A stretch of DNA of 64,000 bases from Gemmatimonadota bacterium (GTDB taxonomy: Bacteria; Gemmatimonadota; Gemmatimonadetes; Gemmatimonadales; GWC2-71-9), in assembly GCA_039586365.1 (NCBI GenBank), contig JBDHKN010000010.1, forward strand, positions 1 through 64,000, written 5' to 3'. Positions within the stretch are counted from its first letter, which is position 1, and each line of letters starts with the position of its first letter. Below are positions 3,001 through 9,000 of this stretch, in pieces. The position numbers are program-made.

Positions 3001-6000
3001 GGAGGGCGCGTTTGACTATCTCACCAAACCTCAGCGAGTGGAGGACCTTCTCGACCGAATCCGCGCGGCAGCGCAGCGGCACGAACAACGCAAAGAAGAA
3101 AGGCGACAGAAAGAGGTGGAAGGGATCTTGTCAAATCACCCCGACTGAGCACTAAGTCGTACGTGAGAACAGCGTGTCTGGCGCGACCGGGCCGCGAGTC
3201 AGGACTCCTAAGTCCTTAACCGGCCTGCTTATGCCGGCTTCTCCTCCCAGCGTGGGTTTGGGTGACCAACCACTTACCGCTGACCGTCGTCCAGCTCGCG
3301 CAGCTTGCGCAGGATTCCGAGCGGGCTCTCTCCCATCCCGGCGGACACGATTCTGTCTATCTTCTCCTCGTCGGCTGCGAACTTCTTCTTGAGGCGGGCC
3401 TCGTAGGCTTCTTTGAGCGTCTCAATGAGCTTTTCCAGCTCGTACGGTTTGGGTAGGTAGCTGAACGCTCCGAGCTTGGTGAGTTGCACTGCGCTCTCAA
3501 GAGAACCATGACCAGTAAGGATAATGGCTTCGAGAAATCTGTGCTTGTCCTTTAATACCCTCAAAACCTCGCTGCCATCCATGCCGGGCATCTTGAGGTC
3601 GAGCAGTGCAATGTCGAATTGCTCACGTTCAGCAAGTTCAATGGCGTCAGCGCCACTTGTCGCAGTCTTCACACCAAAGCCGCGCTTTCTGAGACGGGTG
3701 GCGATGGCATTTAGAAAGCGGCTCTCGTCATCAACGATGAGCAGCTTTATTTGCTGTTCCATTGTGCTCTCCTTGCCTCAACTCATGTTCCCGGGAATCC
3801 CAGCCAGCTCCAATAGCCGAGAACGACCCATACCCACAAGACTGCAAAGCTGAGGCATAACACAGCGGCTCCGTGTTTGAAAAAGTCTCCCAGCGTAACG
3901 AGCTGCTCTCCGGTGTTGGGGTCCTTGGCCATGGCGAATGCCAGAGCATTGGAAGGCGTGCCGATGATTAGCATGTGAGCGAAGGATGAGGCAAACGCGG
4001 TGGCCAGGCCGATCATCCATGGATGGGCTCCGGCAATGCTAGCCATGGGCACTGTGATTGGGCCGACTGCAGCTACGGTGGCACCGTCACTCAAGAAGTT
4101 GGTGGCCAATCCCGTGGCAAGGCTCGCTGCGACTGCGAGGCCAGAGCCGCTCGTCATGAAGTCAGGTAGCACGTTGACGAAGCCGTTGGCCAAGTAGAGG
4201 GCGCCCCCAGTTTCAGCCAGTGCCTTGCCAATTGCGCTAGCTGCCGCATAGAGCAATACGACCTCCCAGTGTATACTCGCCATGTCCTTCCATGCCAACA
4301 CGCGAAATACATTGAGGAGTACCAGACCCAAGATGACTGGCCCTCCGAGTCCAAGCCACTCACTGGCCGTGATCCAGAGTAGAATAACCAGGGCTAGAAC
4401 CGTGGCGGTGATATGCTCGTTGCGAGTCATGGGCCCGATCTTGTCCGCTGCACGCCGGACTAACGCAGACACATCGAGCGTCTTGATCACGGTCTGACGG
4501 CGCACAACCAGAAGGAAGTACAACCCGACCATGAACGACATCACCGGAACCATCGGTAGCCCATACTTCACCCACTGTCCGAAAGTGGGGGCCATTCCGT
4601 AGTCGGCCAATATTCCTATCATGATGGCGTTGCGCCCACCCGCCGCCGGCGAACCTGGTCCCCCGGAATTCGCCGCGAAACAGAGTGATAGTGCAAAGAT
4701 TACCATCAACGCCCTGTCTTTCTTCAAGCCCGCGGTGCTCATAGCACTCGCGTACACCATAACGAATAAGGGCATGGTAAACGCCACCATAGCGTGTTCT
4801 GAGACGAAGGAGCATGCCACCGAGAACAGCGGCAAGAACACCAGTAGCAGCAGGGTGAGGCTCTTGGCCGGAGCCAGAAGCAGTAGCCCGAGGCGTCTGT
4901 CGAAACCGGTTTTGGTGATCGCCTTGCCGAGAGCGAGAACACCGAAGATGAAGATCACGGCGTCTTTGGCAAAGGCCTGCGCAATGTCGTCCGGCTTGAA
5001 AATGCCGAAGAGATAGAGCACTGCGCCGACAAACATGGCGGTCACCGCCACTGGAATACCGCCGGTGGCCCAAAACAGTGCCGCCACGAAGATCAAGGCA
5101 AGCATCGCCTTGGCGCGAAACGCCACTTGGTCCACGGTCAGGGGAACCTTCGCCTCAGCGCCGTCGGCTGCCGTTGCGTTCCTCTCCAATTTGTACTTTC
5201 TGCTGTAGTAGCTGGCGATCGACTGTCCTGGTTCCATCTGTCGATATGCGGAGTACCCGACGATCTCGTCGGGCCTTGACCTGGCAGATTCTGGTTCGCT
5301 CTTCACAAGACTGACCAGGTGCACGAGTGACGCTGGGTTGGGGGACAAAACGATGCAGGCAAAGATGGTTAGTCCCAAGATGATGAACAGCGGGCGCGAG
5401 TTGTGGCTGCCAATGAGCCACCTGCCGAGCGACCGTTCTGCTACATGAGGGATCTCGTGCCGAGCCTTGGCGTGTACGACTTCATCCTTGGCCTCCTCTA
5501 ATACGGTAGCCAGTTCTTCTACTTCGCAGGGCTTCTGCACGTACTTAAACGCGTCGAGCCGACCAGCATCCTTGGCCGACTCCAGACTTCCATGACCTGT
5601 GAGCATGATTGCCTGGATGGCGGGACGAAACGTCTTCAGTTCCCGCAGCGTCTGGATGCCGTCCATATTCGGCATCTTCAGATCAATGACGGCAATCTCT
5701 ATCGCATCGTCTTGCCTCACTGCCTTCACAGCATCTTCGCCATTATCGACGTCAACTACATCGAAGCCACGCTTGCGCAGTCGCCTAGCTAACGGCGTGC
5801 GGAATTTGTGCTCGTCGTCGACAAGTATCACCTTTGACATGTTCGTTCCCTATTGCGCATTACCGGAACAGTCGTTTTGCACTATTTGTTTGGCGAGTTC
5901 GTCAAAGAGATCGCTAAGGCGCAGTATCCCCACGGTCTGTCTATCCCGCTGCACCAACAGTGAAAGCGTCTGGTGAGCCAGGAACGCACCGATTGCGTCG

Positions 6001-9000
6001 GCGAGAGTCGCCTCCTCGGCGATTCCCACTGTTGTTGGCGTGTAGACGTCGCGCACAGCAACGTTGCGGGCACGCACGCAAACATCCACAAAGTCGGCGG
6101 TGAAAAGATCCAGCGTATGCATAGATGACTCTAAGAGGTTGTCATCGACACCCGCGCGACTCAGGAATTCCCTTTCGATCATCGACTTGCGTTCGGGAAT
6201 CAACGCACGCAAGAAGGCAAAGTGGTGGAGCTTACCCACGATGACTCCCTGGAGATTCTGCACAAGAACTGCTCGATGCGGTTGGCGATCAGCGAGAACA
6301 AACACTTGCGATTCCTTGAGGGCCTTGAGTGCGTCGAGGATGGTTGCGTCCTCATCGACGACAGCGTACTCCGATAACGACAGCATGAGGTCTTTGACTT
6401 GCTTAGCCATAGCCAGATCCTCTCGAATTCAGCCGCATCACTCTATCTCGTAGGGTAACTCGACGGTGAACGTGCTTCCTCTGCCAGGTTTGCTGTCCAC
6501 GTAGCAAATGCCTCCAACACTCTTGATGATCGAGTAGCTGACGCTGAGCCCGAGACCCGTACCCTCGCCTGGCTCCTTTGTGGTGAAGAAAGGCATGAAT
6601 ACCCTTTCGAGCTGCTCGGCAGTCATCCCGCAACCTGTGTCCGTCACCGAGATACTCGCGCGGGAATCGCGATGCTCCGTCGCCACCTTGAGAATCCCAC
6701 CTTCGGGCATGGCATCCAACGCGTTCTTGATGAGATTGACGAACACCTGGACCAGTTGATTCCGGTCCGTGAGGATCTCCGGAATTCTGTCGTCGTACTC
6801 CCGTACGACTTCGACGTTTGAGATCGACAACTCGTTACCCAGGATCCCAACCAGCACTGCGTCCAGTATCTCGTGTATATGATGCGACTCAACCCTTACC
6901 TCGGTCTGCCGCACGAATGTCAGGAGCTTCCGGGTTATGTCGCGGCATCTAAAGACCGCGTCGTGCACGATATTCAAGTGTTCCTCTAGATCGAGCGACT
7001 CGTCATCCTCGTCGGCTAGCGCCGGGTCCAGCGAATCCTTCAAGACGCCAACCTCTTCCGCGATGATAGCCAGAGGATTGTTGATTTCATGGGCGATCCC
7101 AGCAGCGAGTTCGCCTACCGAAGCCAGCTTGGCGGCATGAACAAGGTGTCCGGACAACTCGGCCTGGTGTTGTTCCACCGCGATCTGCTTGCTGACGACC
7201 TGCCGGGCGCGAACGAGAATGACAACGCCCGTGAGAACGAAGAACGCCACTATTGCCGAAGACACACTGCCGGGAAGGCCGACGAGGTCATTGTCGCTTG
7301 GATCCCGAGCATCAGTGACTATGAGCGCCCACGGCGTTTCTTTCAGCCAGGCGTAGGCATAGTCCATTGCGGCACCGCTGCCATCGCCCGCGACAAAGCC
7401 GCGCGTTGGCTCGCCGGGAGGCTTAAACAGAGTCTCTTGGAGAGACTCGCCTGCCTGGGGCGTCGTGACCTGCAGGGCCCCGGCCCCGCTCACCACAGCC
7501 GCATGTACTTCGCTAGCCCCTCCAGCGTGGTCAGGTAGTTGGAGAGGCGCTCCGGGGACAGTGTGGATCGCAGGATTTGGATGGTGTCGTTCCGTCGCCG
7601 TCGAACCGCGATTGTGAAGTGCGGCCTGCCCCGGAACCCGAGATAGATCTCGGTAATGACCGATGGTCTCTCTGAGGACAGGAGTTCCCGAAACCAAACC
7701 TCGTCTTGATAGCTTATCCGACTGGGGAAGTTGACCGGTCCGACGTGACTCTCCAATTCACCCGCTTCGCTCACGACCCCAAGATCGACGAAGGCATCGC
7801 TGGTCTGTTGCAGCTCTCCCAGGAATCCGCGCAGCAGCGGCCCATCAACTCGGTCGGCAGCGAACAACGGGTCGTCTATGATGTTGGCCAGATTCACCAA
7901 GCGCTCCCGCAGGAACAGATCGAACGTGTTCGCCTGGTGCTCTGCGATTACGGCAAGGTGGGCGCGGAGACTCTCATGCATTAGGCGCTGGAACTGGACG
8001 TGGAAAAAAAACCGCCAGCAGCAGGAGGGGCATGAAATACAGCAGGATCATCCGGCCAAAAGTGTGCCAGAGGATTTCCCGGAAGTGGTGACCTCTTTCC
8101 AGGTTGGTTCGTCGGACAGAATCGGCCTGCTCGGCTCTTGCCATGGTGTTTCTTGGCTATACTACTCCTCAGTTGTATGCCACACGTACTGCTTCCGTAG
8201 CCATCAAACACTCAGCGTTTTCTAGCGTGGTCAGCGAGGACAACTGCGCATGGCAGAGCCGATACTTCTCCGGTATGGGGTGGGTGCCCACGACCACAGG
8301 TATCTGGTAACGGGATTCGATGAAGTCTTTGAAGTACTCCAACCACGGACACGCAGGGTACCCGACTACGAATCCTGTCGCGAGATGAATCGCTTCAGCT
8401 CCGTTGATCACCATCTCCTCCGGGACGTACTCGATATAGCTTCCGGGGCACCCTCCGCAGCTCGTGAAGCCAACGATCTCCAGCAGATCGTCCGAGGGGT
8501 AACGAGCGAAACCACCTGCTCGCTCTCGCAGCGCGCGGAAGCATTTTCCGCCAGCACAACTCCTATACCTATCGCAGATGATGATGCCGATCTTCATCGC
8601 TCCCGGACAGCGTCAACTAAGAGCATCCTGCTCGCGTATAAAGGTGATTCACGACTCCGTGGGCCTTATCACCAGTACCGGTACGTGTGCAGCCCGTACA
8701 ACCTTGTCGGCCACACTACCAAGGATGAACCGCGGCAACCGACCTCGCCCATGAGTGGTGATGACAATGAGATCCGCCTTCCGCTCCTCAGCCTTTCGGA
8801 GGATCCCCGTAGCCGCCGGTACATCCCTTTCCACCTCTGACGTCACACTCAGCCCCCTCTCCCTCAATCTGAACTCGATCCGGTGCAGATACTCCAGCGA
8901 TTCCGAATGGGCAATTGCGGCATAGTCATCCTCCTCTGTAGCAGAGCGCTCCAGATCGGACGACCAGATGGGGAACGACCGTGACGTCACTTGGATGAGA

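Follow-up and report, generated by a model that had tools for sequence, protein, structure and literature searches.

The window analysed here, the whole 64,000-nucleotide stretch of a Gemmatimonadota contig, encodes a real fusion of an intact response-regulator receiver with a DASS-fold permease (Table 1). We propose, as an even call made from sequence, that the fusion would place a carrier of a sulfur oxyanion, probably sulfate, under kinase-driven post-translational control, in the manner of the IIA domain of LacS. The fusion architecture (the UniRef name of a Desulfobacula toluolica protein) and the type of gene cluster (passages of PMC11887813) are already known; new are the association with dsr/apr genes, the site formed by SEH, SDG and an Arg, the co-inheritance of the clades involved and the scarcity of receivers with a DNA-binding domain.

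Results

Architecture of the fusion protein

Pfam analysis of the 685-aa protein placed Response_reg on residues 4-114 (E 3.9e-24; 85.4 bits against the curated PF00072 cut-off of 30.2), Na_sulph_symp on residues 240-680 (1.8e-32; 113.4 bits against 27 for PF00939) and CitMHS on residues 255-608 (4e-34). The initial annotation had described a receiver with D8, D9, D53, T81 and K103 and a full permease in one ORF, and the Pfam matches and alignments agree. Its '120-residue linker' proved to be mostly TM1 (150-165) and an extracytoplasmic loop (169-235), the true linker being confined to about residues 128-149; unfused orthologues match from residue 148 on and so include both TM1 and the loop. 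The receiver is predicted to form five strands and five helices, as in the (beta/alpha)5 fold. Whole-protein models (pTM 0.71 with 28 rows; pTM 0.81 and pLDDT 88.5 with 150 rows) carry no inter-domain error estimate, and therefore no docking of the receiver on the carrier is claimed.

The five receiver residues showed no substitution in any covering row of the close set (111-117 of 120, the remaining rows being gaps from N-terminally short gene calls) or of the Desulfobacterota-type set (118-120 of 120), making the phospho-site invariant across about 230 relatives when the two sets are taken together. R403 was invariant in all 240 rows. Receiver and carrier are conserved to about the same degree (mean majority 0.80 and 0.84-0.85, respectively), and PF00072 was present in 112 of the 120 best matches to the permease part alone; of the other eight, five start inside the receiver and three after it. 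A related-locus search with the full fusion protein matched the permease in 4 of 80 loci, the others being generic receivers. A chance or mis-assembled fusion was ruled out by hundreds of independent full-length copies, and by three ESM Atlas clusters of 59-107 members.

Table 1. Features of the fusion locus in the window, with the basis of each assignment
Feature	Position	Strand	Basis
REC-DASS fusion gene, 685 aa	3783..5840	(-)	ORF, Pfam, model; DASS folds and receivers by fold search
Receiver domain, residues 4-114 (D8, D9, D53, T81, K103)	5499..5831	(-)	Pfam, alignments
Extended helix 5 and short linker (115-149), with conserved W-x-x-G-x-x-x-x-R-P segment at its end, before TM1	5394..5498	(-)	Alignments, model
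TM1 (150-165) and extracytoplasmic loop (169-235), part of permease subfamily; sidedness inferred	5136..5393	(-)	Sequence, unfused orthologues, model
DASS/IT-fold core, residues 236-685	3786..5135	(-)	Pfam, alignment, fold search
Hairpin-1 tip S347-E348-H349, replacing first SNT motif	4794..4802	(-)	Alignments
R403, TM5 loop lining substrate site	4632..4634	(-)	Alignments; position via alignment to VcINDY
Hairpin-2 tip S584-D585-G586, replacing second SNT motif	4083..4091	(-)	Alignments
323-base segment (residues 567-674; its loss breaks the frame), missing from contigs of runs X1, X2 and X5, kept in window and X3	3820..4142		Single contigs, depth 2.2-4.3
Single-domain receiver, 162 aa, C-terminal helical tail; always directly downstream of fusion	3274..3762	(-)	Pfam, loci, tree
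CBS-domain protein, 186 aa	5850..6410	(-)	Pfam, related loci
Kinase 1, C-terminal piece (rest of Cache, TM2, HisKA, HATPase)	6438..7520	(-)	Pfam, alignment to intact relatives
Kinase 1, middle piece (dCache), flanked by two frameshifts	7517..8008	(-)	Pfam, alignment to intact relatives
Kinase 1, N-terminal piece with TM1, overlooked in the initial annotation	8003..8144	(-)	Alignment to intact relatives
Kinase 2, intact dCache histidine kinase, 570 aa, convergent	553..2265	(+)	Pfam, loci, tree
Double-receiver protein, 288 aa, without DNA-binding domain	2282..3148	(+)	Pfam, loci, tree

Substrate site

Foldseek matches of the fusion model included NaS1, NaDC3, NaCT and VcINDY. With the characterised DASS cotransporters (VcINDY, NaS1/SLC13A1, NaCT; TC 2.A.47) it shares the fold (Foldseek E 1e-13 to 1e-10), two hairpins, two broken helices, T580/N581 and the GTPxN loop. 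Membership among the Na+-coupled cotransporters (VcINDY, SLC13) was judged by SNT motifs at both hairpin tips, which supply Na+ and anion ligands (PMC11584011); the fusion instead has SEH and SDG. Unlike these cotransporters it also has an outer loop of 65 residues, bears an Arg in the TM5 loop and a receiver at its N terminus, and carries a D-P-x-T-G-E-Q insertion ahead of the last helix. The altered site (SEH, SDG and Arg) would define a putatively distinct DASS chemistry, and the invariant R403 and H349 would suit an oxyanion.

The initial annotation had given the substrate as sulfate or a di/tricarboxylate. We narrow this toward sulfur and disfavour the latter, because the carriers are found in dissimilatory-sulfur genomes and the carboxylate-binding SNT motifs are absent. 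An importer of di- or tricarboxylates would match the JGI name 'sodium-dependent dicarboxylate transporter' and the best sequence match among solved structures (VcINDY, E 3e-23), but is very improbable: each SNT motif binds one carboxylate in VcINDY and NaCT (PMC11584011) and neither is retained, the protein stays below the curated TIGR00785 cut-off (145.7 against 198.6 bits), and the family is limited to dsr/apr genomes in the samples searched.

The acidic residues at the hairpin tips bear on the choice of ion as well. In the sulfate carrier NaS1, mutating any SNT residue significantly lowers transport (PMC11584011), and the Glu and Asp of the fusion, unlike that carrier, speak against sulfate as the substrate. 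A phospho-controlled carrier of thiosulfate, sulfite or phosphate, or a proton/cation-coupled exchanger like ArsB or NhaD, would fit the replacement of both SNT asparagines by E348 and D585, since proton-coupled ArsB is marked by a hairpin-1 Asp (PMC13381914). TauE-type permeases and a MOT1-type carrier also share the clusters, and carriers of sulfate reducers are labelled 'sulfate' mainly by annotation and expression, according to passages of PMC5840216. We nevertheless hold another ion to be quite unlikely: R403 favours an anion, the best fold matches are to NaS1 (weak, 20% identity), and D. autotrophicum group Cii DASS genes are reported to be induced below 100 uM sulfate, although another passage of the same source states the opposite for one of them (PMC5840216).

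Link to sulfate respiration

Sulfate, the substrate that we prefer, agrees with the lifestyle of the carrier genomes. In 12/12 of those tested dsrA, dsrB or aprA exceeded the curated cut-off, against a dsrA background of 7/301 genomes in the host phylum, and dsrA was found in 23/23 Desulfobacterota genomes with this carrier clade as compared to 158/301 overall; such co-occurrence among kin is non-independent and shows lifestyle rather than substrate. In genome G734 the operon and dsrB share a contig and are 14 kb apart. The fusion itself was found in 4 of the 158 dsrA-bearing Desulfobacterota genomes sampled and in 0/5 other dsrA-bearing genomes of the host phylum, and is therefore dispensable. 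Pfam DsrD gave no match in the host genome, where it also missed the 81-aa ORF after dsrB, or in controls; by position and a motif only, we take this ORF to be DsrD-like.

Gene neighbourhood and co-inheritance

As first reported, the solo receiver, the fusion, the CBS gene and the kinase are separated in turn by 20, 9 and 27 nt. In the window, L001, L004, G059, G734 and G018, the CBS gene separates kinase from fusion; the five deltaproteobacterial-type fused loci (L003, L122, L130, L131, L133) lack it at that place. Kinase 2 and the double receiver belong to the fusion cluster, being on the same strand and directly downstream in G059. A scan for promoters and terminators found 3 and 8 sites, where chance predicts 3.1 and 5.6, and there was no RNA run among the sequencing runs listed as holding the locus.

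In phylogenetic trees, each component of the module formed one clade: the fused carriers (15/56 rows, support 99; the D. toluolica row was left out), the fused receivers (17/82 rows, 97/88, on 127 columns), the kinases directly upstream (8/29 rows, support 98) and the solo receivers directly downstream (8 rows, 99/99). In 8/8 loci the kinase, the fused receiver and the solo receiver downstream of it fell into their respective clades. The solo receivers of unfused orthologues fall outside the fused clade and were rejected as a split half of the fused receiver. The same carrier group gained N-terminal regulatory domains more than once, namely Usp (P0127), a separate degenerate receiver (P0123) and a fused-clade receiver attached to a distant DASS (P0161); degenerate fused paralogues were also found (P0124, P0128, P0140, L131).

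Other receivers of these clusters had no DNA-binding Pfam domain in 51 of 56 cases (37 receiver-only, 10 REC-CBS, 2 REC-kinase, 1 REC-REC and 1 REC-cytidylate-kinase-like). The remaining five are sigma-54 activators flanking Desulfobacterota clusters at 5 loci, and one cluster holds a PAS-sigma-54 activator; thus, a transcriptional exit does exist in the Desulfobacterota clusters.

Such an exit is part of the main rival to our proposal, in which the carrier signals its flux or occupancy to the Cache kinase, much as DctA informs DcuS, the fused receiver tethers the carrier to the kinase or drains phosphate from the kinase, and output passes through the solo receiver, REC-CBS proteins or the flanking sigma-54 regulators. 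Coupling of transporters to kinases is well established (PMC8871633), in the large clusters each carrier paralogue adjoins its own Cache kinase and solo receiver, and the solo receiver is retained in 8/8 fused loci despite the fused one. We consider this unlikely, since the carrier contacts or is fused to the kinase, not a receiver, in the known cases considered here, the kinases already own a dCache sensor, no DNA-binding regulator stands between kinase and solo receiver in the window, L001, G059 and G734, and invariant T81 and K103 would be needless for a mere tether.

State of the window copy

The kinase upstream of the fusion is one gene broken by two frameshifts. It had been annotated as two genes (g04225 and g04224), which we reject, as intact relatives align as a single kinase across three frames, which cover 8144-8004, 8008-7517 and 7520-6441. 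Together with the loss of part of the permease in some conspecific contigs, these frameshifts suggest that this copy may be decaying. It is quite possible, if a little short of an even chance, that the window operon is decaying, its fused receiver left without a kinase and function resting on a second copy (contig C127) or on kinase 2; this concerns the present copy alone and is compatible with the other readings for the family. The end of contig C127 holds the 3' end of the second copy with a solo receiver, contigs of three runs skip the 323 bases, and the run X1 contig crosses the 7517-7520 shift gap-free and therefore agrees with the window. However, X1 may be the window's own source and depths are below 5, the permease frame of the window is open with all motifs present, and the run X3 contig keeps the 323 bases and has one base fewer in the 8004 homopolymer, which an intact frame requires. 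Of the 19 sequencing runs, 16 hold small shares, and X5 represents these in the comparison. The value of the finding lies in the family, the window copy having a broken kinase.

Discussion

In the mechanism that we propose, a DASS-fold secondary carrier for a sulfur oxyanion, most likely sulfate, would itself serve as response regulator to a dCache histidine kinase dedicated to it. This kinase would sense an extracytoplasmic ligand, probably the same anion, and phosphorylate D53 of the fused cytoplasmic receiver; the switch may then travel via the extended helix 5 and the linker of 20 residues to TM1 and the scaffold, so that the elevator cycle would change in rate or affinity within seconds, in either direction. 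The downstream solo receiver could provide a second output or buffer phosphate, and adenylate sensing could come from the CBS protein. Unfused sister carriers are probably under the same control in trans, by neighbouring solo receivers.

The initial annotation had likewise read the transporter as set directly by phosphotransfer from the kinase, and the conserved phospho-site, the co-inherited kinase clade and the few DNA-binding outputs would fit; the repeated N-terminal regulatory domains, the dsr/apr link and the LacS precedent also favour our proposal. Against it are the sigma-54 activators near Desulfobacterota clusters, the dispensable fusion, the degenerate fused paralogues and the broken local kinase. 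The pattern suggests that cells may tune sulfate uptake directly, not through gene expression. Tentatively, sulfate respirers of several phyla may set uptake by a wholly post-translational two-component network, in which Cache kinases act on receivers fused to or docking on the SEH/SDH-SDG clade of DASS carriers; the protein described here would be its one-polypeptide form, gated by aspartyl phosphate, and would help to explain how sulfate uptake switches between high and low affinity. Sulfate respiration begins with the entry of sulfate, and if receiver phosphorylation sets transport, D53 would offer a concrete mutable switch in the orthologue of a cultured organism, the published transcription-based model of these clusters would be re-read, and PTS control of LacS would gain a two-component counterpart.

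Comparison with known systems

Literature searches found no paper on a receiver-DASS fusion and no experiment on any family member. A 2010 census of response-regulator output domains reportedly lists some transporter-type outputs. The 'new output class' of the initial annotation is overstated, given the D. toluolica UniRef name, the clusters of PMC11887813 and the phospho-control of LacS, by the PTS (PMC8154325).

The D. toluolica protein CCK80087.1 (UniRef100_K0NN26, 691 aa) is a full-length orthologue (374/679 residues identical, 55%) with the same receiver residues and SEH / GGRN / SDG motifs. Its title 'Response regulator modulated sodium/sulfate symporter' is a database name only, and no functional study of it was found in the literature. 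TOL2_19410, a D. toluolica DASS protein detected in membranes, is a candidate for the same protein, as the 691-aa upper length of group Cii fits (PMC5840216). The terms histidine kinase, response regulator, receiver, two-component, CBS and fused do not occur in that paper. Nothing further about the fusion came from passages of PMC5847659, PMC4046663 or PMC5109826.

Clusters of DASS, Cache-kinase and CBS genes have been published as putative sulfate-uptake loci under assumed transcriptional control, with Cache kinases proposed as sulfate sensors and CBS proteins as control (PMC11887813). The loci described here hold the same gene classes in repeated modules, DASS genes lying beside genes for Cache kinases, receivers and CBS proteins, and the host is likewise a dissimilatory sulfate reducer; we liken the loci to Dvar_38230 / Dvar_38430 by gene content. 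The published model takes kinase output to be transporter formation via 'WalR type' regulators, whereas the receivers here mostly lack a DNA-binding domain. The cluster section of PMC11887813 does not mention a receiver-carrier fusion, which its Fig. 5C and figs S21-S23 may show.

In DctA-DcuS, PstSCAB-PhoU-PhoR and CbrA/CrbS (SLC5-kinase), a carrier is joined physically or functionally to a two-component system, as here, but is placed on the input (kinase) side (PMC8871633), while in the fusion it bears the phospho-acceptor. In LacS of Streptococcus thermophilus, a phosphorylated fused IIA domain acts on a secondary carrier (PMC8154325). LacS differs in having the MFS fold and a His-phosphorylated IIA domain fed by the PTS, where the fusion has an Asp receiver and a sensor kinase. 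The IIA domain of LacS is C-terminal. The likeness is an analogy of mechanism, not homology.

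Architecture of the fusion protein

Pfam analysis of the 685-residue REC-DASS fusion revealed a Response_reg domain (residues 4-114) followed by Na_sulph_symp (residues 240-680). In the structure model built on a 150-row alignment (pLDDT 88.5, pTM 0.81), the receiver has five strands, and its long helix 5 extends to residue 127. A short linker leads to the first transmembrane helix (150-165), which is separated from the carrier core by a loop some 65 residues long. With a 28-row model, structure matches were obtained to the DASS carriers NaS1, NaDC3, NaCT and VcINDY, and separately to receiver structures. 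A 120-residue linker had been described in the initial annotation, but unfused orthologues align from residue 148 onwards and most of that stretch is permease. Since the receiver stands ahead of the first hydrophobic segment in the sequence, we infer that it is cytoplasmic.

A PF00072-type receiver was present in 112 of the best 120 matches to the permease part alone and in all of the best 120 matches to a Desulfobacterota-type member, and D8, D9, D53, T81 and K103 were without substitution in either homologue set. Because of this, the fusion is, at the level of sequence, real and conserved and not an artefact. Ahead of the last helix, the fused clade and the unfused sister carriers have a D-P-x-T-G-E insertion that the other paralogues lack; it is a candidate regulatory contact.

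Coordinates of features in the window, the host genome (G000) and fetched loci (L numbers)
Feature	Location	Strand	Remarks
Kinase 2	window 553-2265		convergent
Double receiver	window 2282-3148		convergent
Solo receiver	window 3274-3762	-	C-terminal helical tail at 3274-3400
REC-DASS fusion	window 3783-5840	-	685 aa
D-P-x-T-G-E insertion	window 3890-3930	-	residues 636-652
Kinase 1	window 8144-8004, 8008-7517, 7520-6441	-	one gene in three frames
CGGC-domain protein	window 8169-8597		82% copy on contig C107
Tandem Usp	window 8649-9572
BON protein	window 9708-10157
FixL/FixJ-like pair	window 10428-12279		divergent
3' end of second REC-DASS-type gene	G000:C127:21400-22102		at contig end
Distant DASS carrier unit	G000:C130:53404-59179		with CBS protein, two solo receivers, dCache kinase, double receiver
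81-aa ORF	G000:C97:54951-55196		between dsrB and next large gene
REC-Cache-kinase	L122:2959-5004; L133:1113-3173		Desulfobacterota
Fused paralogue	L131:11457-13490		substrate site worn
Desulfobacterota cluster	L124:69-8883		APS kinase, TauE permease and PPDK-like protein adjoin carrier modules

State of the operon in the window

The initial annotation had treated kinase 1 and a 'dCache piece' as two genes; comparison with two intact relatives showed them to be a single gene. Contigs of four public sequencing runs were aligned over window positions 2200-8300, each run being represented by single contigs at a depth below 5, and X1 may itself be the source of the window. The X3 contig was one base shorter at the homopolymer at 8004, and the second frameshift was spanned unchanged by the X1 contig. 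A stretch of 323 bases of the permease (residues 567-674) was skipped by each of the X1, X2 and X5 contigs and retained by X3. These contigs suggest decay of the operon in part of the host population, and we put the chance that the window copy is non-functional at somewhat below even. A second REC-DASS-type gene of the host, of which the contig end leaves only the 3' end, shows 94% identity over 67 residues; its own solo receiver and a Usp gene come after it.

Organisation of the clusters

Kinase 2 and the double receiver belong to the cluster of the operon, because in another carrier genome, G059, they come after it on the same strand. The gene set upstream of the operon, at window 8169-12279, does not accompany it in G059. 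Across 22 fetched stretches (one a duplicate), carriers recur in units that also contain a dCache kinase together with solo receivers or REC-CBS proteins. Three sets of proteins each group in a single clade: the kinases directly upstream of the fusion (8 of 29 rows, support 98), the solo receivers directly downstream (8 of 82, 99/99) and the fused carriers (15 of 56, support 99). A tree on only 127 columns placed the fused receivers in a clade of 17 rows (97/88). In the sister group of the fused carriers are a Usp fusion, a separate fusion to a degenerate receiver, and unfused carriers whose site motifs are the same. P0127 represents the carrier group fused to Usp, P0123 has the degenerate receiver, and in P0161 a receiver of the fused clade is joined to a distant DASS. 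Besides the paralogue listed from L131, the fused proteins P0124, P0128, P0140 and P0141 have a worn substrate site with the receiver still recognisable, and are possible non-transporting or regulatory subunits.

Once fused receivers, duplicates and some cut or overlong frames had been set aside, 56 other receiver proteins were scanned: in 51 of them Pfam showed no DNA-binding domain, and the other 5, which flank Desulfobacterota clusters, were sigma-54 activators. A PAS-sigma-54 activator was present in one cluster. The solo receivers (window and L121-L139) share the C-terminal helical tail, at whose end is a Pro-containing motif; the tail is a candidate for docking on carriers or kinases. 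At two Desulfobacterota loci the cognate kinase has an N-terminal receiver before TM1 and dCache.

We propose, at roughly even odds, that kinase-driven phosphorylation of D53 affects how fast, or with what affinity, a sulfur-oxyanion carrier works. The kinase would transfer phosphate to D53 of the fused receiver, which, about 20 residues from TM1, would alter transport, and the solo receiver and CBS protein would add buffering and energy sensing.

Putative binding site

Site motifs were placed by alignment to VcINDY. The SNT positions read S347-E348-H349 and S584-D585-G586 in the fusion, and the TM5 loop has R403; the SEH, SDG and R403 positions were kept in 119-120 of 120 rows of each homologue set, and Arg and the acidic hairpin tips reach through most of the wider carrier clade. 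Every SNT is reported to bind one carboxylate and one Na+ in VcINDY and NaCT, and mutation of any SNT residue to lower sulfate transport significantly in NaS1 (PMC11584011). The fusion shares the DASS fold with the characterised Na+ cotransporters but falls outside these in the SNT motif test; carboxylates are for this reason unlikely substrates, and we consider a carboxylate importer highly improbable. An oxyanion held through R403 and H349 is a plausible substrate, and the acidic hairpin-tip residues may bind a coupling cation or proton, as reported for the hairpin-1 Asp of ArsB (PMC13381914). Our choice of substrate rests on genome context and not on the binding site.

Association with dissimilatory sulfur metabolism

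In the host, dsrA and two aprA scored over the cut-off, and, by reading of ORF starts, its dsr/apr block also has qmo, sat and dsrMKJOP-type genes. The 81-aa ORF is DsrD-like by position and had no match to Pfam DsrD. With only three candidates scored per genome, the fusion was found in 3 of 301 genomes of the host phylum, 7 of 301 having dsrA; it was found in 3 of 351 genomes of the host class. All 12 carrier genomes tested for dsrA, dsrB or aprA held at least one over the cut-off: dsrA in G000, G059, G606, G608, G346, G474, G505 and G531, dsrB in G018 (fusion gene split over two contigs) and G734, and aprA in G303 and G607 (fusion gene cut ahead of the receiver). Searches of these genomes did not find dsrA in G303 or aprA in G018. 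The operon of G734 lies 14 kb from dsrB.

The wider carrier clade occurs in 23 of 301 Desulfobacterota genomes, all 23 with dsrA as against 158 of 301 overall; the naive P of 2e-7 exaggerates the association, since related genomes are not independent. The reverse association fails, the fused form being present in only 4 of those 158 genomes, and it was found in none of the 5 further genomes of the host phylum that have dsrA. Three of these five have a distant DASS instead, which in two cases belongs to a kinase-receiver-CBS cluster of the same kind. The unit on C130 also lies on the dsrA contig in genomes G049 and G167. A phospho-controlled carrier for some other ion is a rather improbable reading; a sulfur oxyanion is the substrate that we prefer.

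Comparison with known systems

A DASS/TCS/CBS cluster that spans 30.5 kb and has relatives in 26 sulfate reducers has been modelled as kinase-driven formation of transporters (PMC11887813); the text of that paper's section on the cluster makes no mention of a receiver-carrier fusion. DASS proteins of 474-691 aa are placed in group Cii, and two of them are reported to be induced at low sulfate, on the authority of a 2017 study (PMC5840216). Our literature search, subscription journals and the output-domain census aside, found no study of the receiver-DASS fusion. The Desulfobacula toluolica orthologue (55% identity over 679 aa) bears the database name 'Response regulator modulated sodium/sulfate symporter'. 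The fusion is thus already named, and is a variation on two-component and DASS systems that are already known.

Carriers act on the kinase side in DctA-DcuS and CbrA (PMC8871633). A comparable role, with the carrier as co-sensor or scaffold and the receiver as tether or sink, is unlikely here, though it deserves serious consideration. Phospho-control of the carrier itself, the reading that we favour, is credible and can be tested directly as a post-translational mechanism linked to sulfate respiration; it has a precedent in LacS, where a fused phospho-domain acts on a secondary carrier (PMC8154325).
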